The notes beneath the pieces are model-generated. The model was not told where the DNA came from. It ran no database searches and worked only from the letters and a program-made list of their open reading frames with translations. Both the position numbers and the translations under genes were made by a program. From the IMG/VR virus record IMGVR_UViG_3300014205_000001, positions 253,413 to 317,412 of that record: a stretch of DNA of 64,000 nucleotides, one strand, 5' to 3'. This document shows, piece after piece, positions 4,545 through 59,510 of this stretch; position 1 is the stretch's first letter; every line of letters begins with the position of its first letter. Source of the stretch: a virus. Taxonomy: Duplodnaviria > Heunggongvirae > Uroviricota > Caudoviricetes.

Positions 4545-5090
4545 TTGTGGCTCAATATGCATATAATTGTATTTGTGGCTACTATCATCGATATAAATAC
4601 AAAGCAAGAAATTGTAAAACCTCAATTTCTATGTGACGACAAGTTAACAGCCATTGATTATCCTTTTGGTGGTGCAGTAGTTCATAATATGAAATTAATC
4701 AATCGGTTAATTTCTAAATTTACAAAGTTTAAAAGCAAAAAATTTCCTAAACATCGTACATTACTATTTTGTCGAGGCAGTTCAGGTGCAATTGTTGCTG
4801 CTTTATTTGCTGCTAAATTATTAGGTGACACTCAAATAATTTACGTACGTAAAAGGGGTGAAAATCGTCATGGTGCTCAAAATTTTTTACTACAAGATAC
4901 AGATTTGATAGTATTTGTGGACGATTTTATATGTTCAGGTGAAACAATGCGTGCAATGTATGGAGATATTTTACCTCGATTAAAAAAGCAAAAGCGTGAA
5001 ACAATTGATTTTGTATGTGTGACAGGTTTTGTAAATTTAAAGGATTTGAATTTTAACGTAAAGCACATAATGTGCAAAGGACAATTATGA
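4545..5090 (+). CDS. type I phosphoribosyltransferase (APRT-like)
   Basis: IDYPFGG (APRT N-terminal DYPKPG-like). CRGSSGAIVAALFA..IYVRKRG matches the flexible-loop region. VFVDDFICSGETM is the PRPP-binding motif. Start ambiguous (TTG 4545, ATG 4557 or GTG 4578). Confidence 0.6.
   Translation: MWLNMHIIVFVATIIDINTKQEIVKPQFLCDDKLTAIDYPFGGAVVHNMKLINRLISKFTKFKSKKFPKHRTLLFCRGSSGAIVAALFAAKLLGDTQIIYVRKRGENRHGAQNFLLQDTDLIVFVDDFICSGETMRAMYGDILPRLKKQKRETIDFVCVTGFVNLKDLNFNVKHIMCKGQL
4560..4571 (+). promoter_or_regulatory. conserved motif CATATAATTGTA (copy 1)
   Basis: Exact 12-mer shared with five other loci. Extended -10-like. Confidence 0.5.
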
Positions 5091-5232
5091 GGATTATAAA
5101 ATCACAACCCGGTCGAAAATTATACTTTATTGCTAAAGGTTTCATAAAAATCATTGATGCAATTACACCAATATTGACATTAGGTTTCTATTGGACAGAT
5201 TTAGAATATAAATTTACTAGACGACAATTAAA

Positions 5233-5685
5233 ATGAAAGTATTAAATATAACAACTTACCGTGACGGTGGTACAATAAAACTGGAAACAACTGATGGTGT
5301 CTTTTGGAAAGACAATCGTATTTCATCTACGACCAAAGGTAAATTTTATCGTGGGGATTTCCCAGGGAAAGATAAATCAAAAATGTTAGATGATGAAAAA
5401 TACGAACGGGATTTATATTGGGCGTTAGAAGTCTATCAAAGCGGTAGTTCTAATGCTCGTGTCGAACCTTCATTAATGGCACGTCATTTGATTACAAAAT
5501 TTTCTTATAACGATAAAATTGACATTTCATTAGCACAATTGAGTGCAAAAATATACATTGAATTAATTTTAGAACAACATGTAACATCAATAAACGATGT
5601 TGAATATTGGAAGGAAGTAGAAATTCAATTAAATAATAAAAAATTAACGTTTAAAGAAAACCCAGAAATTGATCACGTAAACTAA
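5233..5685 (+). CDS. hypothetical protein
   Basis: 150-aa ORF. Confidence 0.45.
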   Translation: MKVLNITTYRDGGTIKLETTDGVFWKDNRISSTTKGKFYRGDFPGKDKSKMLDDEKYERDLYWALEVYQSGSSNARVEPSLMARHLITKFSYNDKIDISLAQLSAKIYIELILEQHVTSINDVEYWKEVEIQLNNKKLTFKENPEIDHVN

Positions 5686-5715
5686 ACAATTAACCTTTTA
5701 AAACATAAAATAGAT

Positions 5716-5904
5716 ATGGAAAACTTATACGGATATTACTTTCATTACAATCCTTTTACGAAAATATGGTCAGCAATTGAAATTGCAAAATTGCAGGACT
5801 ACAATGCAGGTAAATTGGATAAAAACGAAATCCTCAAAAATAAAAATATACAAGTGTTGATCGATTTTTTATCAAATCCCAACGCTAAAATTGAAAATGC
5901 ATAA
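5716..5904 (+). CDS. hypothetical small protein
   Basis: 62-aa ORF, weak. Confidence 0.25.
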   Translation: MENLYGYYFHYNPFTKIWSAIEIAKLQDYNAGKLDKNEILKNKNIQVLIDFLSNPNAKIENA

Positions 5905-6073
5905 AAAACTAATCGCTTTTGTACCTGTGTGGTTCTTATACTACACAGGTGAATTTTTTGGTAATTGGGATTGCACGTATGATAACATTTGGGCATATAA
6001 TATGTTCGAAAAGTGTATGTCACGTATGCAACAGTTACAAACTTGGGCTAATTTAAAACAACCGCAGATATGA
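5891..6073 (+). CDS. hypothetical small protein
   Basis: 60-aa ORF, weak. Confidence 0.25.
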   Translation: MKMHKKLIAFVPVWFLYYTGEFFGNWDCTYDNIWAYNMFEKCMSRMQQLQTWANLKQPQI

Positions 6074-6603
6074 AATCGGAATTAGAAATTGAACGTCGTT
6101 GGTTAATGCGTAAATTGCCTAACATTATAGCAAAAGAAAGTTTTAGTATACACCAATACTATACACCTGAAGGTCGATTTAGAAAATCGACTTCTTATAG
6201 TGAGACAGGTGATAAAAATTTTATTCCTGTGACAAAATATTATCACACGATTAAAAAGACAATTAGTCACGGTGTTAACGATGAACAAGAACGTGAAATC
6301 ACAGAAGTTGAATTTAATGAAGCCATTAAATCAGCAACAAAAATGATTAATAAATTACGTTTTATTCATACTCCTGATAAACAACCAGGATGGAATATGA
6401 AATTGAAATTTGAAGTGGATTTGATGTTGAATACGACTTATCACGAAAAACATCATTGTGATTTAATCATTTTAGAAGTTGAATTGGACGACATTAATCA
6501 AGAAATTGAATTTCCTTACTATATTGAAAACCGAATAATTAAAGAAATTACAGGTGATAGTAGTTTTTCAAATTATAATTTAGCGCAATTTTACAAATTT
6601 TAA
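6070..6603 (+). CDS. CYTH-like (triphosphate tunnel metalloenzyme) domain protein
   Basis: N-terminal LEIERRWL resembles the CYTH ExExK start. Alternating acidic strand LIILEVELDD near the C-terminus. Confidence 0.45.
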   Translation: MKSELEIERRWLMRKLPNIIAKESFSIHQYYTPEGRFRKSTSYSETGDKNFIPVTKYYHTIKKTISHGVNDEQEREITEVEFNEAIKSATKMINKLRFIHTPDKQPGWNMKLKFEVDLMLNTTYHEKHHCDLIILEVELDDINQEIEFPYYIENRIIKEITGDSSFSNYNLAQFYKF

Positions 6604-6613
6604 TTTTATCTCT

Positions 6614-7018: not shown

Positions 7019-7032
7019 ATGATATATAAATC

Positions 7033-8692: not shown

Positions 8693-8708
8693 AAACAACA
8701 AAAATATT

Positions 8709-8996: not shown

Positions 8997-9000
8997 TTAC

Positions 9001-10617: not shown

Positions 10618-11592
10618 TTATATATTGTATTTAATATGAACACCTTGATCATCTTCAGTATCAAGAATATGTAATCCACCCATTTTGGTAATTTTAGGTA
10701 AGTTACGTAAAGTTTCCTCTAATGTTGTAAGCTGTGAGTTGTCTTTTAGTAAATAACATTCATCAGGAAAACGATTATAAATTTTGTAAAATAACATAAA
10801 GGATTGTTGTGACATACAATCAGCTGTGACTAATTTTACTAAAGGTTTTGTTTTAAGTATTTGTTGAACAACAGTTTTACCAAATCCTTGATTTTGAAAT
10901 TCAGGTAAAATTGTTAGATAAACAAATTTTATTTCTGTTTTTTCATCTAATATTTCGCAACTACCAATTAATTTATTTTTGTAAATGACATGAAAATCAT
11001 ATAAATTCGCTAATTTGAAATTTTGTTTAAGTGTAACTTCATTAGAATTTTGTAACTTCTCGGTAATATATCTGAACGCTTGAATGTTAGTTACTATACC
11101 TTCATGAATACCGATAAAAACTTTAAACCATTTTTCTAATACTGTTGGAGATAATGAATGACCATTGTCACCTTCAACGTCATCGATTTCAATAATATCA
11201 TCAGTAGGTATCATATCGTAAGTTTTATCGTTGTTGACAACTTTATCTTTCGTTGAAACAATTACCATTAAATCGTTAGGTACTAAAGTAGTATCAATAA
11301 TGTCAGGAATTGCTAATAATTTTTCGTTATTAGATTTAAATGAAGGCATGAATAATAAGCATTCAGTATTTGGTAATTGATTACATAAATGAAATGCTAA
11401 ACAACCACCTAAAGAATGACCAATAATTACATCGTAATGTGTTTCCTTGACTTTTTCTAAATACGTATTAAATATATTGGGTTGATTACGATAATCAATT
11501 AAAGGCATATCAAGACTTCCGTATTTAGATAAAATATCAATACGATCTTGAAAAGGTTTGGAATCTAATCCGTGTAAAAATAATATTTTCAT
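10618..11592 (-). CDS. alpha/beta-hydrolase (GHSLGG serine hydrolase) fused to GNAT acetyltransferase-like C-terminus
   Basis: N-terminal ILFLHGL..IIGHSLGG nucleophile elbow. C-terminal QNQGFGKTVVQQIL resembles the GNAT acetyl-CoA motif. Confidence 0.55.
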   Translation of the reverse strand: MKILFLHGLDSKPFQDRIDILSKYGSLDMPLIDYRNQPNIFNTYLEKVKETHYDVIIGHSLGGCLAFHLCNQLPNTECLLFMPSFKSNNEKLLAIPDIIDTTLVPNDLMVIVSTKDKVVNNDKTYDMIPTDDIIEIDDVEGDNGHSLSPTVLEKWFKVFIGIHEGIVTNIQAFRYITEKLQNSNEVTLKQNFKLANLYDFHVIYKNKLIGSCEILDEKTEIKFVYLTILPEFQNQGFGKTVVQQILKTKPLVKLVTADCMSQQSFMLFYKIYNRFPDECYLLKDNSQLTTLEETLRNLPKITKMGGLHILDTEDDQGVHIKYNI

Positions 11593-12361: not shown

Positions 12362-13702
12362 TTATTTCTTAGTATCTTTTATAATTTTATCTGTAGGACT
12401 AACTTGCCAGAATGTATCTTTATTGCTCATTTTTACACTTACATCTAAATCAGCATTCTCTCCCATGTTACCTGAACGAAATACACCTTCAACCATTTTA
12501 CAATCAATTAATCCACCATCGAACATACAATTTTCTAATACAGAATCTTCTAATGCTTGACAGTTACTTAATTTCACATTATCAATATTGGATTCGTAAA
12601 TATTACTTGTATAGACGTGACCATTACTTACGTCGCAATTAATTAAATCGCAATTGAATAAAGTACATTCAGTAATTCTGCAGTTAATAAAATCAACATT
12701 CGATAAATCAACTTTATTCAAGATGCCATCTACAATTTCTAAACGACTAGTATCAGTATTGTAGTTAACACGAATACCTTCAAATTTTTCTACGTTTTTT
12801 ACAACTTCGAAAATTTTACCCTTAAATTTATCCCAGTTCGCACAGATAGTTCTGTAGTCACCTTCTTTATCCATTTCAACTTTAATATTATCAATGTTCG
12901 ATAAAAATTCGTTATAAGATGTGTATTGTTTGAACCAATTAATATTGTCTTCTAAATAAGAAAGTAATTTAATGTTATCTTCCGCGATTAATGGGTCAGT
13001 GATTGCTTTACGCGTTTCTAAGACAAAGTAATCCATTAACGTTAAGATACGATCAGTTTGTTTTTCGTAATTTTCACCTCCAATGTAACGATATTCTAAA
13101 TATCCTTTCCATTTTTTCTGCATATTAATACCGTAGTATTTAGTATCATCAGGTATTGTTAAGGATTCTAATGTATGACGTAAACCAACTTCGCTATCAT
13201 CAAAACCTTCGAATGGCATTATCCATTTAATAGAACGAGCATAAATATTGTTACGGCGATTTGGAAATTTTTCGTACACAAAATCTTCGTTAAAGTTTAG
13301 AATCAATTTTACTAGATTTACATCTAATACTTTCATATCATCAAATGATACATTGACATGGACTGAACAGTGATCATCAGTATAACCATTTTCATTAATC
13401 CAGTCTAACATTTTAATTGTAATGACTCTGGCATCCATCCATGTTAAAGGTCCTGTGACCATTTCTAACATATTAGGGCCACCTGAATAGTCAGGTTCGA
13501 TTTTGAATTTTTTGTCAGTAGGTGTAAAGTTACTATGATATTGGTTGAATCCCCAAATTTCAATTCCTTGAAAATGATTATTTAAAGATTCTAATGTTTT
13601 AATATAGTGATGATTTGAATACATTTCAAACTCAAGACCTACTTTCGCATTAACTAAATCTTTCCAATTACTGATAAAAGTACTATTTAAATTATTAGGC
13701 AT
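12362..13702 (-). CDS. glutamine-synthetase-fold amidoligase-like N-domain + pentapeptide-repeat beta-helix C-domain
   Basis: VGLEFEM and CSVHVNV resemble the GxExE / hHvHv signatures of GCS2/amidoligase enzymes. The C-terminus has clear 5-residue periodicity (INCRI TECTL FNCDL INCDV ...). Confidence 0.45.
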   Translation of the reverse strand: MPNNLNSTFISNWKDLVNAKVGLEFEMYSNHHYIKTLESLNNHFQGIEIWGFNQYHSNFTPTDKKFKIEPDYSGGPNMLEMVTGPLTWMDARVITIKMLDWINENGYTDDHCSVHVNVSFDDMKVLDVNLVKLILNFNEDFVYEKFPNRRNNIYARSIKWIMPFEGFDDSEVGLRHTLESLTIPDDTKYYGINMQKKWKGYLEYRYIGGENYEKQTDRILTLMDYFVLETRKAITDPLIAEDNIKLLSYLEDNINWFKQYTSYNEFLSNIDNIKVEMDKEGDYRTICANWDKFKGKIFEVVKNVEKFEGIRVNYNTDTSRLEIVDGILNKVDLSNVDFINCRITECTLFNCDLINCDVSNGHVYTSNIYESNIDNVKLSNCQALEDSVLENCMFDGGLIDCKMVEGVFRSGNMGENADLDVSVKMSNKDTFWQVSPTDKIIKDTKK

Positions 13703-14105
13703 ATATCTTAACTGTATTAATTATTTGTTTGTTGAAGATGATCAGTAAATTTTCACCATTTACTTTTAAAGCTTTGTACGAATTATTTAATACATAAGGT
13801 TTTACGTATTTATCTCCAAATTTCGTAGTTTTCCCAAATTTTGAAATATTTTGATTGGCTAAACTGTTGTTCATGACAGTTAATAAATCTTCAAAATTCT
13901 TTACAATTAGAACATCATCTAATGATTCTAATTTAACTTCTAGCAGAATATTTTTATTAATCGGTAATAACATATTACTGAGATTAAGAATAAGTCCTGT
14001 GCCATAAATTGACTGACTATCAAAATGTTCCAGACGTAATTTATTGGAAATTGCGCTTGAAACTTGATATAAATCTGTCTGATAGTAGTAATTCAGTTGT
14101 AGCAT
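13695..14105 (-). CDS. hypothetical protein
   Basis: 136-aa ORF. Confidence 0.4.
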   Translation of the reverse strand: MLQLNYYYQTDLYQVSSAISNKLRLEHFDSQSIYGTGLILNLSNMLLPINKNILLEVKLESLDDVLIVKNFEDLLTVMNNSLANQNISKFGKTTKFGDKYVKPYVLNNSYKALKVNGENLLIIFNKQIINTVKIYA

Positions 14106-14130
14106 GTATTATATATTAAATATATAAACT

Positions 14131-17412: not shown

Positions 17413-17430
17413 TAATGTTATATATTAAAG

Positions 17431-18513
17431 TTACAGTGCAAAACCACCAAAATCCTCATCTCCCATGTCTTGTTTGAAATTTCCGGACACATAATTCGTA
17501 ATTTCTTGTTCTTGAGGAGCAACCTGAACAGATTTCGATTCTGTCCATTTACTAATCCATGAAATAGGATTTTGCACCTTATCAAAAATTGGTTCCAATT
17601 TAATCATTTTCATTCTATTGTTCGTTAACCATTTCATGTACTGAGTTAAAATCTCAGCATTTAAGCCTAACATTGAACCATCCTTGAATAAATAATTAGC
17701 CCACTCAATTTCTTCCTGTGCAGCATCTTTAAACATTTGGATTACTAAATCTTCACATTCAGCAGCAACGTCTTTAAAACCTTCACTTGATTCGTCATTC
17801 AATGTTTTAATTAAAAAAGATGTGAACCCCATGTGTAAATTTTCATCTCTGTTAATCAATTCAATAATTGATGCATTACCTACCATTTTCTTATTTTCCG
17901 CAAAGCAATAAGAACATGCAAATGATACATAGAAACGAATACCTTCCAAGATATTTATCGACATTAGAGTTAAATACAAACGTTTTTTACGATTATGTAA
18001 TGTATCGTTAGGTATACCTTCAATTAAAGCATCATAATACTTAGTAACTGAAGTAGTACGTTTAATAATTTCTGTATCTTGTAGAATAGTATCTAACATT
18101 TCACTAGGATTGGGATAAATATTCTTAATAATATAAGTATAAGAATATGAATGTAAAGTTTCGAAAAATTCCCAAGTTTTTGCGAAGGCTTCGATTTCTG
18201 GATTTGAACAGTCTTCTAATAAATGACTGATACCACGACTTTGTACAGAGTCCAGAAGAATTTGATAACCTAAATTTTTAGTAAAGATAAATTTTTCATG
18301 GTCTAATAAAGACGAATAATCTCCTTTGTCTTTCGATACGTTAATTTCTTCAGGACGCCAAAAAAATCCGATTTGCTGTTTGAACAAACCAAAGATATTT
18401 GCATGACGGAATTTGTCATATCGTTGGAGTCCTAATTTTTCGCCAAAAAATGATGGCTCTTTTGTAAAATCGATGTTTTTTAAGTTTATTATACTCATAA
18501 TTTTATCCGGCAA
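17431..18513 (-). CDS. nrdB: ribonucleotide reductase class Ia small subunit
   Basis: R2 ferritin-like di-iron motifs (EAFAKTWEFFETLHSYSY ... ENLHMGF). Size and placement next to nrdA. Confidence 0.9.
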   Translation of the reverse strand: MPDKIMSIINLKNIDFTKEPSFFGEKLGLQRYDKFRHANIFGLFKQQIGFFWRPEEINVSKDKGDYSSLLDHEKFIFTKNLGYQILLDSVQSRGISHLLEDCSNPEIEAFAKTWEFFETLHSYSYTYIIKNIYPNPSEMLDTILQDTEIIKRTTSVTKYYDALIEGIPNDTLHNRKKRLYLTLMSINILEGIRFYVSFACSYCFAENKKMVGNASIIELINRDENLHMGFTSFLIKTLNDESSEGFKDVAAECEDLVIQMFKDAAQEEIEWANYLFKDGSMLGLNAEILTQYMKWLTNNRMKMIKLEPIFDKVQNPISWISKWTESKSVQVAPQEQEITNYVSGNFKQDMGDEDFGGFAL

Positions 18514-18588
18514 TATCCGGCAATTTTTAATTTGTTATGTTGTTGAAAATGATTTGATTTACTTTTCTATCCGGCAATATCCGGCAAT
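18505..18588. repeat. two copies of ATCCGGCAATATCCGGCAAT (decamer x2 each) 64 bp apart in the nrdA-nrdB intergenic region
   Basis: Exact 20-mer at 18505-18524 and 18569-18588. GC-rich relative to the surrounding AT-rich sequence. Confidence 0.6.
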
Positions 18589-20870: not shown

Positions 20871-20945
20871 AATTGTAGAGATAATTTTTATTTGTATGTT
20901 ATATATTGTGTCTACAGTAAATAGTTTTAAAAAATATTTACTTAC

Positions 20946-21137: not shown

Positions 21138-21307
21138 ACACTATATATTTATATACTGAAACTATCACTTTGTTTAATATTAAGTTGCAAGTTTTTGGGA
21201 CAGATATGATATAATTAAAAATAAATATAAAATTTATAAATTACGAACAGAAAACTTATAAATTAAGGGTCAGTAAAACTTTTAAAAAATATGTCTATAT
21301 AAGTAGT

Positions 21308-24259: not shown

Positions 24260-24277
24260 ACTAATATATAAAAGGTC

Positions 24278-28822: not shown

Positions 28823-28951
28823 TCTTATAGTAATTCATAGTAAATTTAACTTATTGATTATCAACTAGTTAGCTTTACTATGAAAATTAAATTTTTAAGA
28901 TTCAAAAATTATGATTAATTATGTAGTATAAATTTAAAACTATATAAAATC

Positions 28952-32724: not shown

Positions 32725-32766
32725 AGCGTTTATAGAATACCTTGCAAATAATATATAAATAATATT

Positions 32767-37556: not shown

Positions 37557-37589
37557 ACATTTACTTAAAATTGTCATATAATATCCTGT

Positions 37590-41451: not shown

Positions 41452-41466
41452 ACATATAATTGTAAC

Positions 41467-42774: not shown

Positions 42775-42798
42775 TAATTTCATTTATCATTTACTATA

Positions 42799-42810
42799 CA
42801 TATAATTGTA
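42799..42810 (+). promoter_or_regulatory. conserved motif CATATAATTGTA (copy 2)
   Basis: Exact 12-mer ending 1 nt before GTG start of 42812 ORF. Confidence 0.5.
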
Positions 42811-42811
42811 A

Positions 42812-43653: not shown

Positions 43654-43669
43654 AAACAAAACAAATAAA

Positions 43670-44413: not shown

Positions 44414-44416
44414 GTA

Positions 44417-45792: not shown

Positions 45793-45824
45793 GCCAGGAA
45801 AGTAAACATACTTGCTTTCCTGGC
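45793..45824 (+). terminator. 10-bp hairpin (gccaggaaag / ctttcctggc) without T-tract, abutting a TATAAT variant
   Basis: Perfect inverted repeat. Followed directly by CATATAATTAAC and ATG 45836. Confidence 0.4.
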
Positions 45825-45835
45825 ATATAATTAAC

Positions 45836-47680: not shown

Positions 47681-47692
47681 CATATAATTGTT
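47681..47692 (+). promoter_or_regulatory. conserved motif CATATAATTGTT (copy 3)
   Basis: TATAAT 6 nt before ATG 47695. Confidence 0.5.
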
Positions 47693-49041: not shown

Positions 49042-49053
49042 CATATAATTGTA
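49042..49053 (+). promoter_or_regulatory. conserved motif CATATAATTGTA (copy 4)
   Basis: Precedes GC-rich mini-ORF/RNA element and tRNA cluster. Confidence 0.5.
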
Positions 49054-49094
49054 AAACAAAAATAAACTTTTTAATATATAACCATATAACTAAT

Positions 49095-49193
49095 ATGAAA
49101 AATGTAACAGTTAATACAAGTTCGCGGTCGGCATCCTCAAGACGCCGTAGTAAATTTCTATTGCCTGGACTTATAAGTTAAATACATTGACAT
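49095..49193 (+). CDS. possible 32-aa basic peptide or structured RNA leader (GC-rich island)
   Basis: ATG ORF MKNVTVNTSSRSASSRRRSKFLLPGLIS. Contains ttcgcggtcggcatcctcaagacgccg, atypically GC-rich. Confidence 0.2.
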
Positions 49194-49202: not shown

Positions 49203-49236
49203 AACTCCAGGTAATTTAATTTATCTGGAGTTTTTT
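49203..49236 (+). terminator. hairpin plus T-tract
   Basis: aactccag / ctggagtt stem then TTTTTT. Confidence 0.55.
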
Positions 49237-49250
49237 ATTGTTGTAAAATT

Positions 49251-49330
49251 GGAAGGTAGCGTACAAGGTGTACATCCCGCCTTGAAAGCGGGCGCGGTCT
49301 AACGACAGGGTTCGATTCCTATATCTTCCG
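49251..49330 (+). tRNA. atypical tRNA-like element (anticodon loop CTTGAAA gives UGA/Ser-type; weak T-stem)
   Basis: 7-bp acceptor GGAAGGT/ATCTTCC, D-arm GTAC/GTAC, perfect anticodon arm CCCGC-CTTGAAA-GCGGG, T-loop GTTCGATTC. Only 3 T-stem pairs. Confidence 0.35.
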
Positions 49331-49335
49331 CATTT

Positions 49336-49410
49336 GGTCCTTTAGTTTAATGGACAGAGCATGGGGATTCTACCCCCAGAGTGAGGGTTCGATTCCTTCA
49401 AGGACTACCA
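49336..49410 (+). tRNA. tRNA-Arg (anticodon TCT), CCA encoded
   Basis: Acceptor GGTCCTT/AAGGACT, anticodon arm TGGGG-ATTCTAC-CCCCA, T-arm GAGGG-TTCGATT-CCTTC, ends ACCA. Confidence 0.85.
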
Positions 49411-49507
49411 AATAAATAAGGAAGATCGACTCATCAGGCGATGGGAGTAGTTTGCTAAACTATCTGTGCATGAATTTGCACACGGGTCGGGACCGTGGTT
49501 TTCCTCT

Positions 49508-49582
49508 GCCTCTGTAGCTCAATTGGATTAGAGCACTCGCCTACGAAGCGAGAGGTTGCGCGTTCGAATCGCGTCAGAGGTA
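49508..49582 (+). tRNA. tRNA-Arg (anticodon ACG)
   Basis: Acceptor GCCTCTG/CAGAGGT, D-arm GCTC..GAGC, anticodon arm CTCGC-CTACGAA-GCGAG (identical loop to E. coli Arg-ACG), T-arm GCGCG-TTCGAAT-CGCGT. Confidence 0.85.
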
Positions 49583-49662
49583 CAGGAATATAATATGAGT
49601 TCGAGTCTCAGCAACGGAGATAGCTACCGTTAGAAGCATTTATGGTGATGCAGTTCCACTAT

Positions 49663-49735
49663 GCCTTCATAGTTCAATGGATTAGAATGTCGCGCTTCGG
49701 ACGCGATGATGTGGGTTCGAATCCTACTGAGGGTA
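49663..49735 (+). tRNA. tRNA-Arg (anticodon TCG)
   Basis: Acceptor GCCTTCA/TGAGGGT, anticodon arm TCGCG-CTTCGGA-CGCGA, T-arm GTGGG-TTCGAAT-CCTAC. Confidence 0.8.
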
Positions 49736-49745
49736 CTTTAAATTA

Positions 49746-51232: not shown

Positions 51233-51245
51233 AATGATTTATATA

Positions 51246-52353: not shown

Positions 52354-52397
52354 AAATTATATATTAAACTTTCGATAGTAGTGCTTATATAATAAGT

Positions 52398-53033
52398 ATG
52401 GCTAAAAAATCAACAATTAAAAAACCAGCACCTTCTAAACAAGAACTGGCGAAATCAGCAGTTAAATCTGCAGCAGCAAAAAGAGCTGCAATCACTAAAA
52501 AACTTAAAAAAGAAAGTGAAGTCATTTTAAATGATGAAAAAATCAAAGATTTATTGGATTCAATTGCTCAAATGACAGTGGATTTAGATTTGGTTACACA
52601 TCAACGCAATTTATTAGAACTTGATATATCAGCTTATATGTTAACTAATAACGATTTACGTAAAGAAGTTGAAAACTTACGTCGTGAAAAATTACATTGG
52701 GAAAGTACATGTAGTGATTTTCAACTTGAACTAGAAACACAAAAAGCTATGTTTCAAAATATTAGTAAAATGGCTGATGATGCGACTAAACAAAATGAAA
52801 ATTTAACTTCGATGTATTCGGATTCAATTACTATCAATTCTAGTTTACGTGAATCATTACAAAATCAACAAAACGAAATTGAAAATAATAAGATCAACTT
52901 TAGCCGATTGCAAAATGCATTTGACCGTGAAAAAAGTATATTAACTGCTATACAAGATAAACAAAATAATGTTTGGTATAAGAGACTTTATAAGTGGTTC
53001 GATAGTGGAAAATCTTTAGGTCCTAGACCTTAA
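52398..53033 (+). CDS. hypothetical coiled-coil protein
   Basis: 211-aa ORF, heptad-rich. Confidence 0.45.
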   Translation: MAKKSTIKKPAPSKQELAKSAVKSAAAKRAAITKKLKKESEVILNDEKIKDLLDSIAQMTVDLDLVTHQRNLLELDISAYMLTNNDLRKEVENLRREKLHWESTCSDFQLELETQKAMFQNISKMADDATKQNENLTSMYSDSITINSSLRESLQNQQNEIENNKINFSRLQNAFDREKSILTAIQDKQNNVWYKRLYKWFDSGKSLGPRP

Positions 53034-53869
53034 GCATCTATTTGAGCTAATACTAAAATATTATTTTGAAACCATTCGGAGCACTTATTTTTTATAAGTG
53101 CTTTGTTTGTGTTATATAGATCGCGAAAATATTGAACTAAACGTTCAGCTGAAGTTTCGATAATGTCAGGACGATATTCTGAAATAACACCAATCATTTG
53201 TAAATCTGTTTCGTTATCAGTAGGATAATCTAAAAAGGTATAAATACTTGTTTTATAATCATGATCAGAATTAGTAACATCAATTTCGTTATTTTCTGCA
53301 ATACTCATTATCGGTTTTTTAATTAAAGTACCTTTTTGTTTTTTAGCAGATTTACGATGATGTTTCATATTACTCTTACTTTGAATTTGTAACCCAAATT
53401 CTTTTTTAGGTACAATACCTAATTTAGTTGAACCATATTTTACAGGTGTTGCTAAATCGCCACTTCCCATACTTCCAATTTGACCAGGTACACCACTCAT
53501 CCCAGGATTAACTACTGCTCCCATCCCACCACCAGCACCCGCATTTGAAGCATCTTCTTTAATTGCTAAGGATTCTGCAAATTGCAGCATATCAGGTTCA
53601 TTTGCTAAGCGATTAATTAAACCACCAATTTGCAGCTTTAGACTGGGTTCATGAACCTTACATCGTACAATGAATTGATCTTTAATACAATCTTGAAAGA
53701 TGTTTATTGGTAATTTAAGGGTACGATACGTGTAATAATTCTTAGAAGGTGCTTCGTTATATTTCAAACGAACCTTGACTGAATCACCTTCTACTGATAA
53801 AACATCAAAATACCACTTATTATTAATAAATAATTGATCATTTGTTTGGATTACATAACTGCTTGTCAT
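53030..53869 (-). CDS. hypothetical protein with Gly-rich linker
   Basis: 279-aa ORF. Confidence 0.45.
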   Translation of the reverse strand: MTSSYVIQTNDQLFINNKWYFDVLSVEGDSVKVRLKYNEAPSKNYYTYRTLKLPINIFQDCIKDQFIVRCKVHEPSLKLQIGGLINRLANEPDMLQFAESLAIKEDASNAGAGGGMGAVVNPGMSGVPGQIGSMGSGDLATPVKYGSTKLGIVPKKEFGLQIQSKSNMKHHRKSAKKQKGTLIKKPIMSIAENNEIDVTNSDHDYKTSIYTFLDYPTDNETDLQMIGVISEYRPDIIETSAERLVQYFRDLYNTNKALIKNKCSEWFQNNILVLAQIDA

Positions 53870-53892
53870 ATTATTATATATTATTCTAAATG

Positions 53893-53904: not shown

Positions 53905-53920
53905 ATGTAACACATACAAA

Positions 53921-54814
53921 ATGGCAGCAAAAGGGTTAATAATAGGTGACGTTATCATAGCTTTGGTGAATGATAAAAAGAATTACGGCAGATATTTAAA
54001 TGAAGTTGCAAAATTTGGTTTATTAACAATTGACGAAGAAGTCGAATATTTTCAAAAATTTCGCGCCGGTGAAACTAAGTATTACAATAAAATTGCAGAA
54101 CGCAATTTACGATTTGTAATATCTGTTGCCAAAAAATTTCAGAATGTTGTAGCGTTTACAACTGCATTAACATTAGAAGACTTAATCAGTGAAGGTAATT
54201 TAGGACTATGTGAAGCAATTCATAGATACGATGAAACTCGTGGGTTTAAATTCATTTCTTTTGCAGTACATTATATTCGTTCATATATCAATACTGCTAT
54301 TTATCGACATTTACGAACCATTAGAATGCCGCAAAATCGTCAAGTTGTATTATATAAGTTGACAAAATTAGAAAACGAATTACAACAAGAATATCACATT
54401 GATGAAATTCCTACTGAATTATTACAACAATACGCAGTTGAAAAAAATATAGAATCAGCTTCCATGATTTCGGATATTAAAAAATTTACTAATTCAGGCA
54501 CTAGTTTAGATGCATCAAATAGTAATGAAATATGTTTGAAAGACATGATTGAGGATGTTTCAATTGAAGGACCTTTTAGCACTTTATTAAATAAAGAAAA
54601 AGCTGATTATCTGAAAAGTATTTTAGATAAAATACCTGAACGCGTTGCTGAATATATTACATTGCACTACGGTTTAAATAATCAACCTGCATTAGAAATA
54701 AAAGAAATTGCGAAAATTCATAACGTAGGCAACGAAGTTGTTCGTTTTCAAATTAGGAGATGGACTGCAAAAATGTATCGTCCAAATGTAGAAGATTATA
54801 AACAATACAACTAA
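53921..54814 (+). CDS. sigma-70 family RNA polymerase sigma factor (regions 1.2, 2, 3, 4)
   Basis: KFGLLTIDEEVEYFQKFRAGE (1.2). RNLRFVISVAKKF (2.1). DLISEGNLGLCEAIHRYDETRGFKFISFAVHYIRSYI (2.2-2.4). EYITLHYGLNNQPALEIKEIAKIHNVGNEVVRFQIRR (region 4 HTH). Confidence 0.85.
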   Translation: MAAKGLIIGDVIIALVNDKKNYGRYLNEVAKFGLLTIDEEVEYFQKFRAGETKYYNKIAERNLRFVISVAKKFQNVVAFTTALTLEDLISEGNLGLCEAIHRYDETRGFKFISFAVHYIRSYINTAIYRHLRTIRMPQNRQVVLYKLTKLENELQQEYHIDEIPTELLQQYAVEKNIESASMISDIKKFTNSGTSLDASNSNEICLKDMIEDVSIEGPFSTLLNKEKADYLKSILDKIPERVAEYITLHYGLNNQPALEIKEIAKIHNVGNEVVRFQIRRWTAKMYRPNVEDYKQYN

Positions 54815-54831
54815 ACAACAATACAACTAAA

Positions 54832-55038
54832 ATGAAAACATACATTTTCGGTAATAAAGAAATTTTCAATAAAATATACGAACAATTCTTTGCAATGCGT
54901 ATCTTTCATCGTACTGATGAACATGGTCAAATTTTAATGAAATTTGCAACCAAAGGAATTGAAAAGGAATTAATGAAAATGAATTTCATCAAGGAACAAT
55001 TAACAGAATTTAAAGAAATTAAAAAAGATGAAAAATAG
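54832..55038 (+). CDS. hypothetical small protein
   Basis: 68-aa ORF directly after sigma gene. Confidence 0.35.
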   Translation: MKTYIFGNKEIFNKIYEQFFAMRIFHRTDEHGQILMKFATKGIEKELMKMNFIKEQLTEFKEIKKDEK

Positions 55039-55453
55039 AATTGTAATTATATTACGTGGAGTACCAGGAAACGGCAAAACGACTTTTGCAAAATTTTTAG
55101 AATTTATTTGTGACATCAGTGATATGACTTTCACTTTGTGTTGTGCAGATGAATGGTTTGAAGATGAAAAAGGTAACTATAACTTCAAAATGGAAGAACT
55201 GGGTAAAGCACACGCCTGGTGTAAAAATCAATTTAAAACATCATTGGATGGTTTAGTTGATGTTATTGTAGTTGCGAATACTAATGTTCGTACTGACGAT
55301 GTAAAAATGTATCGTAATTTAGCGATTGAAGCTGATTATCGTGTTTTTGTATTGACAGTTGAAAATTGGCACGAAGGTATCGATGTACATAACGTACCGA
55401 ACGATGTAAAAGAAAAAATGAAAAAAACTTTGTTATCAACAATTCGTCTGTAA
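55028..55453 (+). CDS. P-loop NTPase / small kinase (AAA_33- or dNMP-kinase-like)
   Basis: N-terminal IVIILRGVPGNGKTTFA Walker A within 15 residues of start. 141 aa. Confidence 0.5.
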   Translation: MKNRIVIILRGVPGNGKTTFAKFLEFICDISDMTFTLCCADEWFEDEKGNYNFKMEELGKAHAWCKNQFKTSLDGLVDVIVVANTNVRTDDVKMYRNLAIEADYRVFVLTVENWHEGIDVHNVPNDVKEKMKKTLLSTIRL

Positions 55454-55740
55454 TGCTTACAACTAAACAAATAATTGCGCATTTACAAGCTGATTTTTCT
55501 GCAAAAGAATTAGAAGCTATTGAGCTTATCATTGAAAAAATTGATGATTTCTTACTGAACAATTGTAATTATAGATATTGTACAATACGTACGGATATTT
55601 TGCATCCTATTTTAAATGAATTTGAAGTTTATTTAAATAGATACCATAAAATAAAAGAATATGTGTGCGGACAATATCAAGCATTAGGTTGGACAATTAA
55701 ATTAGAAGAAAATTATATTTCATTTGAAATCAAACAGTAA
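55453..55740 (+). CDS. hypothetical protein
   Basis: 95-aa ORF. Confidence 0.35.
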   Translation: MLTTKQIIAHLQADFSAKELEAIELIIEKIDDFLLNNCNYRYCTIRTDILHPILNEFEVYLNRYHKIKEYVCGQYQALGWTIKLEENYISFEIKQ

Positions 55741-55915
55741 ATCAGAAAAAGAAGCAAAATTACATATTTTAAAAGGTTCGCAATTAGAACATGATAAAAT
55801 ATGGAAAGATTTTAGTTACATCTATGGACCTGATAGTCCTCGAACAGTAGCTATACAAAACGAAAGAAATAAACTAACTGATGAAATCAATCAATTATTA
55901 AAAGAATTACAATGA
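55724..55915 (+). CDS. hypothetical small protein
   Basis: 63-aa ORF. Confidence 0.3.
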   Translation: MKSNSKSEKEAKLHILKGSQLEHDKIWKDFSYIYGPDSPRTVAIQNERNKLTDEINQLLKELQ

Positions 55916-56163
55916 CAACAGTAGAATTATTACAACAAAGTTTAATAGGTAAAAAATTACGCCACACAAATCAATGGCATCGTGAAGTTGTATTGACAGT
56001 TGAAAGTATTAAATCCAATTCATATACTAGACAAATTACTCCAGATACTCGTGAAAACGATTGGTATGGTGAAACATCAACATCATATTGGTACGATGTT
56101 ACTTTTAATGATGGTTCAGTTGTAAAGTTTGATATAAACGCTAAATGGGATATTGTAGAATAA
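55912..56163 (+). CDS. hypothetical protein
   Basis: 83-aa ORF. Confidence 0.35.
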   Translation: MTTVELLQQSLIGKKLRHTNQWHREVVLTVESIKSNSYTRQITPDTRENDWYGETSTSYWYDVTFNDGSVVKFDINAKWDIVE

Positions 56164-56179
56164 AAATAAAAACACAAAT

Positions 56180-56812
56180 ATGAAACAAATTTTAATTTAT
56201 TGGTTTTGGTACTGGAAGTATCGTTACCATATTTGGAAAGATCGTAACAATTACGCTAAAAAATATCCTAATCATACAAACGTTGCATTTTATGATGCAA
56301 TGCGTTGGGCATTGGATATACATCATAACGTACGTCAAAGATATGACAAAATTTATCCCTATTTCTTTCACTTGAATGAAGTAAGTAAAGTTGCTATTAT
56401 GTTTCGACATTTAGTAAATGGTAATCCTTTGACTTTTTTAATTGCATTGTTTCACGATGTAATTGAAGATGCAAGGTTGACTTATAACGATGTGAAAGAT
56501 GCATGGGGAAAAGAAGTTGCAGATGGTGTATATGCATGTACTGAATTAAGGGGTAGAAACAGAAGTGAACGTCATGGTCCTGAATATTTTAAGGAATTAA
56601 AATTAAATATGTTAGGACGTTTTGTAAAGATATGTGATGTGATTGCTAATATGGAACGTGGATTAAAAACAGGTTCTTCAATGTTAGATAAATATGTGAA
56701 GGAATATCCTCACTTTAAAGAAGAACTTTATTGTGAAGAATATAAAACAATGTTCACGTATATTGAAGAAGTAATCATCAAAAAATATCACGAAAAGAAA
56801 GCTGCAAAATAA
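56180..56812 (+). CDS. HD-domain hydrolase resembling SpoT/Mesh1-type (p)ppGpp hydrolases
   Basis: YFFHLNEVSKVA (H..EV motif) followed by LFHDVIEDARLT, matching the HDVVEDT box of RelA/SpoT HD domains. Confidence 0.5.
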   Translation: MKQILIYWFWYWKYRYHIWKDRNNYAKKYPNHTNVAFYDAMRWALDIHHNVRQRYDKIYPYFFHLNEVSKVAIMFRHLVNGNPLTFLIALFHDVIEDARLTYNDVKDAWGKEVADGVYACTELRGRNRSERHGPEYFKELKLNMLGRFVKICDVIANMERGLKTGSSMLDKYVKEYPHFKEELYCEEYKTMFTYIEEVIIKKYHEKKAAK

Positions 56813-56813
56813 T

Positions 56814-57209
56814 ATGGAAGAAAAATTTATCCCTAAATCATTAGACGAAGCAGTCGAGTATTTAGTAAAACAAAACGACGAAAAAACATTAGCTGAAATC
56901 AAAAGCATGAATGAAAGACAATTCATGTCAGCAGTTCATCACGGTATGGGAACTGCAATTCGCAATGAATGGAATCTATGGTGGCATGGAATTAAAGGCA
57001 TCGAAGGTGTTCCTAAAGAAAAACCTGAACTGATTGCTGAATTTGAAAAGTTAGGTATTCTGCATGGTGACGATATTTCAGGAATAATTTTAACTTCGAC
57101 TTATCGACAAATTAAAGGTTTAGATCGTGATTTACAAAATCAAATTAAAGAATATCACGATCATTGGAAAGAAAACGGTTTTGCGGATGGTATTTTCAGA
57201 ACAAATTAA
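56814..57209 (+). CDS. hypothetical protein
   Basis: 131-aa ORF. Confidence 0.4.
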   Translation: MEEKFIPKSLDEAVEYLVKQNDEKTLAEIKSMNERQFMSAVHHGMGTAIRNEWNLWWHGIKGIEGVPKEKPELIAEFEKLGILHGDDISGIILTSTYRQIKGLDRDLQNQIKEYHDHWKENGFADGIFRTN

Positions 57210-57612
57210 ACAGAACTTTATAACTTATAGTCACGAAATTATTCAAGGGTATGACTTTGGTAATTTTCGTGGCTATTTTCTATCATTGAAACGTTTGGAT
57301 TCTTATGAACTTATCAAAGAATTATACAAACTTAAAGATGAAGATGAAACATACATTATCGCATTATTAGATTTAATTTGTCAATTAAAAGAAATTACAG
57401 ATTTAGATGTTTTATTGATACCTGTTGAAAGTTACTATCGGCAAAATCAAATCACTCGTAAAATGGCACTCAGCTGTTTTAAATACTGGGAAGATAAAGT
57501 TGCTTTATTTTTTCTGTATCAATTACTTCCTGATTCAGCAGAATATGTTGAATCTTATCGAGTTGCAGTATTATACAATTTACAACAAAAACTTGATATA
57601 ACTCATTGGTAA
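57187..57612 (+). CDS. hypothetical protein
   Basis: Start trimmed to internal ATG to limit overlap. Confidence 0.4.
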   Translation: MVFSEQIKQNFITYSHEIIQGYDFGNFRGYFLSLKRLDSYELIKELYKLKDEDETYIIALLDLICQLKEITDLDVLLIPVESYYRQNQITRKMALSCFKYWEDKVALFFLYQLLPDSAEYVESYRVAVLYNLQQKLDITHW

Positions 57613-57683
57613 TCAACTAGTTATAAATAAATTTCTTTTTGCAAATATAATTAGTTATATTTGTTCTACACAAACTTTACTTT

Positions 57684-57989
57684 ATGACAAGAATTACTCA
57701 AGGCGCTTCTGTACGTCTGAATTTAGAAAATTTGTTCGAAATTCGTGAAAAATTTATTGGTGATCGATACAATAAAATTTTACAGAAAGTTGATGAAAAG
57801 CAACTCAAAAAAGAATTAACATTTCTTACTTACGAAAGTCCAGCTTACATTGATAATGTAAGACATGAATTATGTCGTGTTAGAGGTTTACAACTTTGCG
57901 ACGACCAAGGTCGTAAATTCGACATCTGTGATTTATTAATTCCTGAAGCATCCTTAATTATAATTCAACAACAATATCAACATAAATAA
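57684..57989 (+). CDS. hypothetical protein
   Basis: 101-aa ORF. Confidence 0.4.
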   Translation: MTRITQGASVRLNLENLFEIREKFIGDRYNKILQKVDEKQLKKELTFLTYESPAYIDNVRHELCRVRGLQLCDDQGRKFDICDLLIPEASLIIIQQQYQHK

Positions 57990-58000
57990 AACCAAATAAC

Positions 58001-58342
58001 ATGACAGCAACTACAAAAAATTGTCCCAGCACAATTCAAATGCATCAAGATGTAACCAATTTGATTTTTGAAGCGAAAAAATTCGAAAATAAAAATCCTG
58101 ATCTTGCTAAACAGAAATATGAAGAAGCGTTTTCACTTGCAAAAGAAGCAGCACAACTTTTAAAACAAGAAGTAAATGCTGAACCAATTCGTTCAGAACT
58201 TTACTACAGTGCTAGTTGTTTAGCTTTAAAATTACGTAACAACAGAGAAGCATTTGAATTGGCAGTTGAAGGTAAAAGGTTTTGTCAAAGTTCACCTTTG
58301 TTAGAAGAACTTGAAGAATTACGAATTAAAGCACAATTTTAA
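58001..58342 (+). CDS. hypothetical protein
   Basis: 113-aa ORF. Confidence 0.4.
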   Translation: MTATTKNCPSTIQMHQDVTNLIFEAKKFENKNPDLAKQKYEEAFSLAKEAAQLLKQEVNAEPIRSELYYSASCLALKLRNNREAFELAVEGKRFCQSSPLLEELEELRIKAQF

Positions 58343-58677
58343 TGAAAAAGTTTTTGCAAATATTAAGTTCAATAATGTTGATCTTAAATCCAACTTGTGG
58401 TTTAATGATTGTTGCAAGTATTATACATAGTTGTAAAACAGGAACATATTGGTGGATTATCGCGATAGCATTTTCGTTTGTTATTGTGTATTTTGTTTTA
58501 AAATTCAATGCTTATATGTATCGTGATGAAAACAAAAAACGATACACTGAATATTTGAAATGGAAAGCAAAATTCAGTTTAACACACGATTTAATACAAG
58601 AATATTGTACTGATTATGGCGGTGCTGATTATCAATTATGGCGGAATAAATTAACTGGTAAATACATAGAAATATAA
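58342..58677 (+). CDS. small membrane protein
   Basis: Two hydrophobic helices in N-terminal 60 aa. Confidence 0.4.
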   Translation: MKKFLQILSSIMLILNPTCGLMIVASIIHSCKTGTYWWIIAIAFSFVIVYFVLKFNAYMYRDENKKRYTEYLKWKAKFSLTHDLIQEYCTDYGGADYQLWRNKLTGKYIEI

Positions 58678-59489
58678 TGAATATACATTTTACAGATAAA
58701 GACTTCTTTGAAGATTTAAAAGCTGCAACTCTCGCTAAAGTAAGAGTAGGTTCTCATTTATATGGGACTAATAACGAAAATTCTGATGAAGATTTTCTGT
58801 ATATTTATGCTACATCTAAAGCAGAATTAGGCAGTGTATTTTCAACGAATCATCAATTACAATACAAAGAAAACAATATTGATCATAATTTTGTTTCGTT
58901 ACATCAATTCATTAAGAATTGTATTAACGGTGATAGTCCCATTAATTTTGAAGTAATTCAATCAGATGAATTAGTGGGAAGCGATGTAGAATTTTTAACA
59001 GTACATCAGGATTATTTTCGCACCTATGCAATTATTCGTAGCTATAATGGTTTGGTAAAACGCGACATCAAACATTACAATAAAGCAACTACGGATTATG
59101 AAAAACGTAAACGATTAGGTCATATTGTTCGTGGCATATTGTATACACATTTGTTATTGGATAATAACTTTAATTTCAAACAAGCAAATTTATCCTTTAT
59201 CCAAACACAGCAAAAATATGCTGAATTAGACCTCGACCCAAGAATTGTGAATCCTGAACTACAACGTTTAAATTCCATTGCTGAAGAACAGCGTAAATTG
59301 CTGAATGAAAAATTAGACAACGGCACGTTGGGTTATGCAAAAACAATGGATGTTAAAGGTGGTGTGATAATTACCCAGGATTTACAGCATCTAATGAACT
59401 CTTTATTCTTTCAGGTAAAACAGGACAAGTTAAAGAATTTCGATCTGTCTTATTTCATAAAAGCCTTCGAAAACTGGGTCCAATATTAA
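58677..59489 (+). CDS. Pol-beta-superfamily nucleotidyltransferase (RlaP/PF10127-like)
   Basis: VRVGSHLYGTNNENSDEDFLYIY carries the GS-x9-SDxD NTase signature near the N-terminus. 270 aa. Confidence 0.6.
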   Translation: MNIHFTDKDFFEDLKAATLAKVRVGSHLYGTNNENSDEDFLYIYATSKAELGSVFSTNHQLQYKENNIDHNFVSLHQFIKNCINGDSPINFEVIQSDELVGSDVEFLTVHQDYFRTYAIIRSYNGLVKRDIKHYNKATTDYEKRKRLGHIVRGILYTHLLLDNNFNFKQANLSFIQTQQKYAELDLDPRIVNPELQRLNSIAEEQRKLLNEKLDNGTLGYAKTMDVKGGVIITQDLQHLMNSLFFQVKQDKLKNFDLSYFIKAFENWVQY

Positions 59490-59498
59490 ATTTTAAAG

Positions 59499-59510
59499 CA
59501 TATAATTGTA
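59499..59510 (+). promoter_or_regulatory. conserved motif CATATAATTGTA (copy 6)
   Basis: TATAAT 6 nt before ATG 59513. Confidence 0.5.

Follow-up and report, generated by a model that had tools for sequence, protein, structure and literature searches.

The 64-kb stretch of DNA analyzed here (positions 253,413 to 317,412 of the IMG/VR virus record IMGVR_UViG_3300014205_000001), referred to as the window throughout, belongs to a phage of the Caudoviricetes with a genome of about 391 kb. The window encodes a DNA polymerase B, a ribonucleotide reductase, an NAD-dependent ligase and a clamp-loader-like ATPase, together with gp13-like and baseplate-wedge-like proteins, a protein with a type IX secretion system (T9SS) sorting domain and a sigma factor, the last of which was also found on a metagenomic contig of 390,959 bp. 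In addition, a short motif, CATATAATTGTA, which is composed of CA, TATAAT and TGTA and is denoted class A here, recurs close to the start codons of open reading frames (ORFs). Nine class A sites are present in the window. They are listed below with the number of nucleotides (N) between TATAAT and the start codon; L006 and L009 are loci of related phages.

4560..4571, + strand: exact copy (CATATAATTGTA) with TATAAT at 4562-4567; N7 to GTG 4575, in frame with ORF 4545-5090
37575..37586, + strand: variant (CATATAATATCC); N7 to ATG 37590, an independently called start
41453..41464, + strand: exact copy; N6 to ATG 41467; the orthologous site in L006 reads TATAATAGTAAC-ATG
42799..42810, + strand: exact copy; N5 to GTG 42812 of a 2H phosphoesterase gene
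45824..45835, + strand: variant (CATATAATTAAC); N4 to ATG 45836
47681..47692, + strand: exact copy; N6 to ATG 47695
49042..49053, + strand: exact copy heading a leader ORF/tRNA unit; conserved in L006 and L009
53893..53904, + strand: exact copy 16 nt 5' of the sigma factor ATG, within a 36-bp bidirectional core
59499..59510, + strand: exact copy; N6 to ATG 59513

Class A is strongly enriched. The seven exact copies of the 11-mer CATATAATTGTW all lie on the + strand and none on the - strand. In dinucleotide-preserving shuffles 0.19 copies were expected, and seven or more were reached in 0 of 100 shuffles. Under a third-order model of the window, CATATAATTGT occurred seven times with 0.17 occurrences expected. 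The most over-represented 8-mer of the window was CATATAAT (27 vs. 6.6 expected), which is retained by the two variants at 37575 and 45824. When two mismatches to the 11-mer were allowed, the count was at chance level (92 vs. 87 expected). Thus, class A is a tight family rather than a fuzzy AT-rich pattern. All seven exact copies fall within intergenic DNA, which accounts for 4.1% of the window (p ~ 2e-10). The preliminary description of this DNA had named a similar motif density inside coding regions as an observation that would speak against the motif; within the 64-kb window, none of the seven copies is located in coding sequence. The six copies listed in that description are all real, the copy at 41453 having been overlooked. 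Its near-variant at 45824 was correct, and its second one begins at 37575 instead of 37577, which is the position of the TATAAT. The leading G of its 12-mer is present in five of the nine sites only.

Outside the 12-mer, similarity between the copies stops, and no flanks are shared. The TATAAT is perfect in all nine sites of the window and in most orthologous sites. With this hexamer numbered -12 to -7, as in sigma-70 geometry, the information profile showed invariant C-14 and A-13, followed by TATAAT and by T-6, G-5 and T-4. Around -35, nothing was conserved, in agreement with the preliminary description. A conserved -35 or -33 element was rejected, since a TTTaCA-like hexamer at the right distance was found sporadically, in three to four class A sites only. 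The same description had offered an extended -10 mode; in its strict form, this does not hold, since positions -15 to -13 of the class A sites read (G)CA and not TGn.

The gap between TATAAT and the start codon was N4-7 in seven of the nine sites, with N6 as the mode, and this spacing held across 14 sites in five phages. A co-oriented called start lies within 4 nt of the 11-mer for five of seven copies, compared with a background of about 1% (p 2e-9), defined as the fraction of random positions with a co-oriented start at most 10 nt downstream. The statement that a start codon closely follows in every case proved too strong: besides the copy before the sigma gene (ATG 53921), the 49042 copy is an exception, with 41 nt before a leader ORF of 28 codons. 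Several of the start codons themselves are validated by orthologues, and an independent gene caller picked the same motif-adjacent starts. GTG 42812 is backed by the orthologue N-termini VLQI.TILEFDPP (alignment VLQIETILEFDPP / VLQIRTILEFDPP / VLEIKTILEFDPV), and ATG 47695 by MKQSLELRIE, which matches MAKQSLELRIE in L006. The orthologues of 41467 and 59513 retain an ATG at N6, and for ATG 45836 the orthologue N-termini align loosely from the motif-adjacent codon. For the phosphoribosyltransferase-like gene (4575-5090), GTG 4575 is a likelier start than TTG 4545. Shine-Dalgarno sequences were not found upstream of the window genes.

Orthologues of the phage sigma factor (42-53% identity) led to the syntenic loci L006/L007, L008, L009, L010, L023 and L024. 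In these lineages, motif and spacing are kept at orthologous positions. The 36-bp core 5' of the sigma gene, TTATTATATATTAWTCWAAAWGCATATAATTGTWWT, is essentially invariant in seven lineages, and the 16-22 nt between this core and the sigma ATG vary in sequence and length. The core is bidirectional: class A faces the sigma gene, and on the opposite strand the divergent gene has TTAATATATAAT 3-4 nt upstream of its ATG. The 12-mer or a one-base variant of it, with N5-6, also precedes the orthologues of 41467, 42812 and 59513, the last of these in L006 (as TACAAT), L008 and L010. In L009, the motif is located 34 nt upstream of the 2H-phosphoesterase orthologue, a GTG gene. L009 also has A in place of C at -14, and its sigma factor is the most divergent one. 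The L006 orthologue of 47695 is without class A, so that the promoter at 47681 would represent a gain or a loss.

Beyond this group, the class A 11-mer was absent from 41-kb samples of LR756502.1 and LR756500.1. A megablast search with 20 kb of the window against phage records gave no match, and protein-seeded scans of IMG/VR with the sigma factor and UvsW returned distant relatives only, or none. The regions upstream of sigma genes in the distant phages L001, L002 and L014 were uninformative.

Class A heads arrays of small ORFs on the + strand at 37-49 kb, at 54-60 kb and at 4.5 kb, as well as genes of RNA repair and nucleotide metabolism, the phage sigma gene and the leader/tRNA unit. The regions 41703-45499 and 54832-59489 encode a 2H phosphoesterase, an AAA_33 kinase-like protein, an RlaP nucleotidyltransferase and a vWA-TerF-like protein, with an HD-domain protein in relatives. 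The class A modules related to RNA repair and tRNA, which lie beside the tRNA cluster, may constitute a counter-defence set against tRNA-cleaving host systems. Two class A copies are directly preceded by terminator-like hairpins, which would mark boundaries of transcription units at class A:

4511..4542, + strand: terminator-like hairpin (stem 4516-4536) and T run directly 5' of the 4560 copy, forming a composite terminator/promoter
45794..45823, + strand: terminator-like hairpin abutting the 45824 copy; L006 has a hairpin of other sequence at the same place

A second, promoter-like motif, TTAATATATAA, labeled class B, occurs on both strands; at about 13 gene starts, it precedes the ATG by 0-8 nt, and at a few others by 11-31 nt. 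For ATATATAA, 10 of 17 copies have a co-oriented start within 8 nt, compared with a background of 1% (p ~ 1e-16), while the total number of copies is not above chance (17 vs. 16). The looser TATATAA family that the preliminary description had seen before other starts is thereby real and occurs on both strands, with a total count at chance. Class B heads the genes for ribonucleotide reductase and DNA polymerase, the clamp-loader region, baseplate, neck and virion genes and genes for large proteins, and often occurs in divergent overlapping pairs. The class B sites of the window are the following:

7023..7029, + strand: class B, 3 nt before ATG 7033
10618..10624, - strand: class B, 5 nt before ATG 10612 of a baseplate-wedge-like gene
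14109..14127, both strands: overlapping divergent class B pair for ATG 14105 (-) and ATG 14131 (+)
17418..17424, - strand: class B, 5 nt before ATG 17412
20899..20905, - strand: class B, 28 nt before ATG 20870 of the ribonucleotide reductase large subunit
21296..21302, + strand: class B-like, 5 nt before ATG 21308 of DNA polymerase B
22827, + strand: position listed among the class B positions of the window
24265..24271, + strand: class B, 6 nt before ATG 24278
28941..28947, + strand: class B-like, 4 nt before ATG 28952
32752..32758, + strand: class B, 8 nt before ATG 32767 (protein of 1353 aa)
49075..49081, + strand: class B (TTAATATATAA core), in tandem with the 49042 class A copy, 13 nt before the leader ORF
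51239..51245, - strand: class B, 6 nt before ATG 51232
52357..52392, both strands: divergent class B pair for ATG 52353 (-) and ATG 52398 (+)
53874..53880, - strand: class B, TATATAA followed by 4 nt and the ATG of the divergent gene 53030-53869
61267..61273, - strand: class B, 29 nt before ATG 61237, heading an operon of virion proteins

Class B is strongly enriched in the 41-kb sample of the 642-kb genome LR756502.1, where TAATATAT was found in 14 of 46 upstream regions, and it occurs in the form GATATATAA in the 41-kb sample of LR756500.1. Since both distant samples contain class B and neither contains class A, class B is clade-wide and class A specific to a subclade. A class B-like motif was also listed for L013 and L014. 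In the case of 13695-14105 (- strand), publicly called as a protein of 92 aa (13695-13973), the class B motif located 3 nt upstream of ATG 14105 suggests that a form of 136 aa is the real one. Between the genes for the small and the large subunit of ribonucleotide reductase (18499-18587, - strand), ATCCGGCAATATCCGGCAA occurs twice in 89 bp, comprising four CCGGCAAT units at 18507, 18517, 18571 and 18581; this 8-mer and its complement are present seven times in the window, with 0.6 expected. Within the nrd operon, the ATCCGGCAATATCCGGCAA repeat may serve as an RNA element or as a binding site for a protein.

The UvsW-like helicase of the phage shares 44% identity with those of uncultured phages of 634-642 kb, which belong to a huge-phage clade predicted to infect Bacteroidetes (PMC7162821). 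The product of 28952-29911, a gene with the class B motif upstream, possesses a C-terminal T9SS sorting domain (Por_Secre_tail), which implies export by way of the T9SS of the host. In L015 and L016, distant relatives found via the neighboring DUF8385 protein, 6-7 canonical TTTG-N19-TAnnTTTG promoters with leaders of about 20 nt were present per 12-13 kb. The prediction of a Bacteroidota host is supported by these promoters, by the T9SS domain and by the nearest relatives of the sigma factor.

In Bacteroidota, the primary sigma factor recognizes TAnnTTTG centered at -7 and TTTG near -33, and the 5' untranslated regions (5'UTRs) of B. thetaiotaomicron are typically about 23 nt long (PMC7366714). 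TATAATTG fits TAnnTTTG at five of the six specified positions. The likeness extends to the position of the start, which a G at -5 or -4 would place on or beside the ATG (on the ATG with G at -5), and the host phylum fits. However, class A has A for T at -8 in nearly all copies, lacks the -33 TTTG and carries C-14 A-13 and T-4 A-3 as extra invariant positions. At the L008 orthologue of the 49042 site, the sequence reads CATATATTTGTC and contains the exact host box TATATTTG. Canonical host promoters were rejected as the promoters of the window because of their chance-level count and wrong places: the full pattern of -33 TTTG and -7 box was matched five times in the 64 kb (5.6 expected), with no match at gene starts and never at class A sites. 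Judged from these sequence comparisons, class A would be best described as an extended derivative of the host -7 box that has no -33 element.

The phage sigma factor was compared with its cellular counterparts.

53921..54814, + strand: phage sigma gene, 297 aa, full length and sigma-A-like, with diverged promoter-contacting residues

It aligns over regions 1.2 to 4.2 with primary sigma factors of known structure, and its nearest cellular relatives are Bacteroidota RpoD/SigA proteins of 286-288 aa (35-40% identity, about 90% coverage). Changes were found at the equivalents of E. coli W433/W434/Q437 in region 2.4, H455/E458 in region 3.0 and R584 in region 4.2. The Bacteroidota sigma-A, unlike the phage sigma factor, retains WW..Q. 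In the clade of phage sigma factors, which includes P0002-P0009, there is a five-residue insertion after region 2.1, the core-binding segments are conserved, the R584 equivalent is lost and the W433/W434/Q437 positions are highly variable.

In sigma-70 geometry, a gap of N6 would put +1 on the A of the ATG, and at the N4-7 sites the predicted +1 coincides with the first base (A or G) of the ATG or GTG or is at most 1-2 nt away. The preliminary description had proposed this arrangement, a TATAAT -10 element with the start on or beside the start codon, and both the spacing and the orthologue N-termini agree with it. Leaderless genes are characterized by a -10 box that precedes the AUG or GUG at a short, fixed distance (PMC4007540). 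Class A is, with good probability, a promoter for a sigma-70-family holoenzyme that consists of a -10 element only, has neither a -35 nor a -33 element and gives rise to leaderless mRNAs. The first cistron behind class A would be translated off such a leaderless mRNA, and the sigma gene would carry a leader of 16-22 nt.

Some points weigh against this interpretation. The motif counts stem from a window of 64 kb, i.e., 16% of the genome. What the sequences show is enrichment, placement, spacing, conservation and the validity of start codons; that the motif acts as a promoter, where exactly +1 lies and which factor reads it are deduced. Since nearly all copies differ from the host consensus by one base and the -33 TTTG is missing, recognition by unmodified host sigma-A is not assured. 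Two of the candidates begin with GTG, a codon that works poorly as a leaderless start in E. coli. GTG leaderless starts do occur in Deinococcus (PMC4007540). A further point is that leaderless mRNAs are rare in B. thetaiotaomicron, where about 3.7% of the 5'UTRs are shorter than 10 nt (PMC7366714).

Readings other than a sigma-dependent promoter were weighed. The motif might act in the RNA, as a translation enhancer or as an operator over the start codon similar to that of T4 RegA, on transcripts that start upstream. It does adjoin start codons, Bacteroidota use an A/U-rich upstream context instead of a Shine-Dalgarno sequence, and the sigma leader AATTGTTATGTAA resembles AAAAUUGUUAUGUAA, which is said to be the RegA consensus from SELEX (systematic evolution of ligands by exponential enrichment). 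However, the motif and the start are not a constant distance apart (4-7 nt, and also 16-22 nt at the sigma gene, 34 nt at the 2H orthologue of L009 and 41 nt at 49042), the ATG-TAA of the sigma leader is present in two of seven lineages only, and the hairpins right upstream of two copies leave no space for another promoter. On these grounds, a RegA-like translational operator was rejected, as was the idea that the sigma leader has a conserved start-stop mini-ORF (ATG TAA). Moreover, the 51-bp intergenic region at the sigma gene contains only class A and the divergent class B motif, and the core of class A is a perfect TATAAT. Since the distance varies at some sites while the spacing is strict elsewhere, and since the 49042 unit is not adjacent, a promoter under selection is indicated rather than a translation signal, and an action at the RNA level is very improbable. 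Recognition by a sigma-independent phage RNA polymerase (RNAP), either a virion enzyme of the phiKZ/AR9 type or a single-subunit one, is hardly to be expected either. Such polymerases recognize long, nearly invariant motifs, and the 12 bases of class A exceed a usual -10; an own RNAP is frequent in huge phages, and the early promoters of AR9 and phiKZ are of a comparable design, being extended and AT-rich with the start 6 nt downstream (PMC5312081). On the other hand, class A has a canonical TATAAT in sigma-70 geometry and is interchangeable with the host -7 box, and a phage-encoded sigma factor implies a bacterial-type core. Pfam, PHROGs and PDB searches revealed no RNAP subunit among the window proteins, including two of more than 1300 aa, a weak argument at 16% of the genome. 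Finally, the copies may be identical mainly due to the spread of terminator/promoter cassettes that mediate recombination between small-ORF arrays, in the manner of the PeSLs (stem-loop followed by promoter) described in T4-like phages (PMC4122927). The composites of hairpin and promoter at 4511-4571 and 45794-45835, the location of copies inside arrays of small unknown ORFs and the missing 47681 promoter in L006 would fit such cassettes; however, a hairpin is present at two of nine sites only, no flanks are shared beyond the 12-mer, and most sites are kept at orthologous positions and are not mobile. A PeSL-like spread is compatible with promoter function, but is unlikely to be the main source of the identity.

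As regards the factor that reads class A, the preliminary description had favored the phage sigma factor encoded at 53921-54814. It would then activate its own gene, class A would form a (middle) regulon specific to the phage sigma factor, and class B would depend on a different factor, e.g., a T4 gp55-like late sigma factor encoded outside the window. The descent of the sigma factor from Bacteroidota sigma-A would parallel that of class A from the sigma-A -7 box. Its variable region 4.2 without the R584 equivalent matches promoters without a -33 element, and the changes at W433/W434/Q437 and H455/E458 fit altered contacts at -12 to -15 (C-14 A-13). Only the subclade carrying this sigma orthologue showed the exact 12-mer, with class B-like motifs but not the 12-mer in the samples of LR756502.1 and LR756500.1; canonical promoters of the host type are missing from the window; and L009, with the most divergent sigma factor, reads A and not C at -14. 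Against this, class A is the only promoter-like element upstream of the sigma gene in seven of seven lineages, and the upstream gene is divergent and gives no read-through, so that class A must be recognized, if only weakly, by another holoenzyme. Region 2.4 differs among the relatives (HY, WY, WQ, WH, NV) while the core of class A stays the same, and one orthologous site, that of L008, has returned to the exact host box. Known phage sigma genes (T4 gene 55, SPO1 gene 28, phiEco32 gene 36) are transcribed by the preceding class, which also counts against self-recognition. Self-recognition by the phage sigma factor is thus less likely, and we lean towards a holoenzyme that is present before this factor is made; the phage sigma factor would then serve class B. 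As reader of class A, host sigma-A is the tentative favorite, the phage sigma factor is a doubtful candidate, and another phage factor or RNAP is an unlikely one. A second sigma factor, a gp55- or gp33-like protein or an RNAP gene was not found among the about 50 window proteins scanned (16% of the genome). The question set up for in vitro transcription is whether host sigma-A or the phage sigma factor acts on class A or on class B templates.

The class A copy at 49042 and the class B motif at 49075 precede a leader ORF, a terminator and tRNA genes:

49095..49181, + strand: leader ORF MKNVTVNTSSRSASSRRRSKFLLPGLIS of 28 codons, 12 of them Ser or Arg
49160..49169, + strand: region 2 (AUUGCCUGGA), which can pair with the 5' arm of the terminator (49206-49215) to form an antiterminator
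49203..49239, + strand: intrinsic terminator with a 12-bp stem and a T run, 12 nt before the first tRNA
49251..49736, + strand: tRNA cluster with Ser(TGA), Arg(TCT), Arg(ACG) and Arg(TCG)

Class A had been considered as a direct tRNA promoter, a view that was revised since the leader ORF and the terminator intervene. The spacer at about 49420-49507 aligns with the tRNA-Ser(GCT) of L006 and has the same anticodon loop, TTTGCTAAA; it probably is a Ser(GCT) tRNA missed by ARAGORN and Rfam. A second spacer within the cluster is located at 49584-49662. The layout is common to four phages, i.e., the window, L006 (7497-8195), L008 (134-1166) and L009 (6003-7580). In all four, the leader ORF is open over 25-30 codons and contains a Ser/Arg block; in the window, the 12 Ser and Arg codons among 28 compare with 9.3% of the window codons. 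The leader of the window contains CGG, and its cluster contains tRNA-Arg(TCG); L006 has CGA at this place, two Arg(ACG) and no Arg(TCG). RNAalifold with the four phages predicted a conserved leader hairpin and the terminator, the latter with two compensatory pairs in L006. The 2:3 antiterminator duplex amounted to -14.5, -9.7, -13.6 and -14.0 kcal/mol, compared with -15.0 to -19.5 kcal/mol for the terminator. Since folding of the whole leader always retains the terminator and is uninformative on attenuation, the nascent RNA was folded instead. With the ribosome stalled on the Ser/Arg codons, the antiterminator was the minimum free energy fold in four of four phages. The stop codon is located 3-9 nt 3' of CCUGGA (region 2), so that a terminating ribosome would mask region 2, and CCUGGA is kept in L006 despite a different reading frame.

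Thus, all components of a classical attenuator appear to be present in silico in the four sequences: an ORF of 25-30 codons with UCR, AGY, AGA, CGY and CGR codons, a leader hairpin, an antiterminator of 8-10 bp and a terminator. The Ser/Arg codons of the leader would be those read by the tRNA-Ser and tRNA-Arg genes downstream. Scarce Ser/Arg decoders would stall the ribosome and open the terminator, so that the phage tRNAs would be made only when the host fails to decode the CGU- and UCA-rich phage genes, and the net effect would be an autoregulation of tRNA supply through translation. Our tentative proposal is that the 49042 class A and 49075 class B motifs might drive a leader-peptide attenuator regulating the phage tRNA operon. 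No family match was obtained for the leader unit in Rfam, and scans of IMG/VR DNA for the leader ORF and the terminator loop gave nothing, or unrelated terminators only. In the literature, no described case of tRNA-operon attenuation was found, and an attenuator-like switch over the own tRNA genes of a phage is apparently undescribed. If real, it would make tRNA genes a new target class for ribosome-mediated attenuation and would account for the dosing of tRNAs by phages.

For huge uncultivated phages, transcription has hardly been mapped at all, and here two sequence rules, CATATAATTGTA-N2-ATG for class A and TTAATATATAA-N3-8-ATG for class B, split a 64-kb window into regulatory modules. These rules sharpen the calling of start codons (GTG 4575, GTG 42812 and ATG 14105). 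They also predict leaderless first cistrons for most units in a phylum that rarely uses leaderless mRNAs, which makes the translation-initiation pathway of the phage directly testable.

Phage promoters with a -10 element only that give leaderless mRNAs are an already known kind. The leaderless genes of Deinococcus, mycobacteria, actinobacteria and archaea and lambda cI resemble the class A genes in the short gap between -10 and start, in the use of AUG and GUG and in the lack of a Shine-Dalgarno sequence. In contrast to these, the present case concerns a phage of a phylum with rare leaderless mRNAs, the -10 is embedded in an invariant 12-mer, and leaderless transcripts are predicted from sequence, with 5'UTRs of 0-2 nt for class A compared with the usual 20-30 nt in Bacteroidota (PMC7366714). 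Phage promoters without a -35 element are known from Thermus phage P23-45 (extended -10), phiEco32 (TAATGTATA, read by gp36) and the late genes of T4 (TATAAATA, read with gp55), and Thermus phage P23-45 reportedly makes leaderless transcripts. Like class A, these promoters have a motif in the -10 region only that is strongly conserved in one genome, they involve an own sigma factor or a remodelled host sigma factor, and they mark temporal or functional modules. However, the consensus of class A is a different one without TGn, and the sigma factor of the present phage is a full-length sigma-A homologue and neither gp55-like nor similar to sigma factors of the ECF (extracytoplasmic function) type. 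The T4 late -10 is not matched by class A, and class B is similar to it in style only.

The early promoters of the AR9 and phiKZ virion RNAPs (AAATATATATTAT-N6-G) resemble mainly class B, which is AT-rich and has its presumed start a few nt downstream. Their transcripts differ in having leaders of at least 26 nt, none being leaderless, and no multisubunit RNAP was found in the present window. The PeSLs of T4-type phages share with class A the order of stem-loop and promoter, the location between small ORFs of variable regions and one case of gain or loss. In contrast to the PeSLs, a stem-loop accompanies two of the nine class A copies only, and the promoter has no -35 element. The leader/tRNA unit resembles the trp, his, pheA and pheST attenuators in its short ORF rich in regulatory codons, in the alternative 1:2, 2:3 and 3:4 pairings, in the terminator before the regulated genes and in a stop codon that lets the ribosome cover region 2. 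It differs from them in its regulated genes, which are phage tRNA genes that decode the leader's own Ser/Arg codons.

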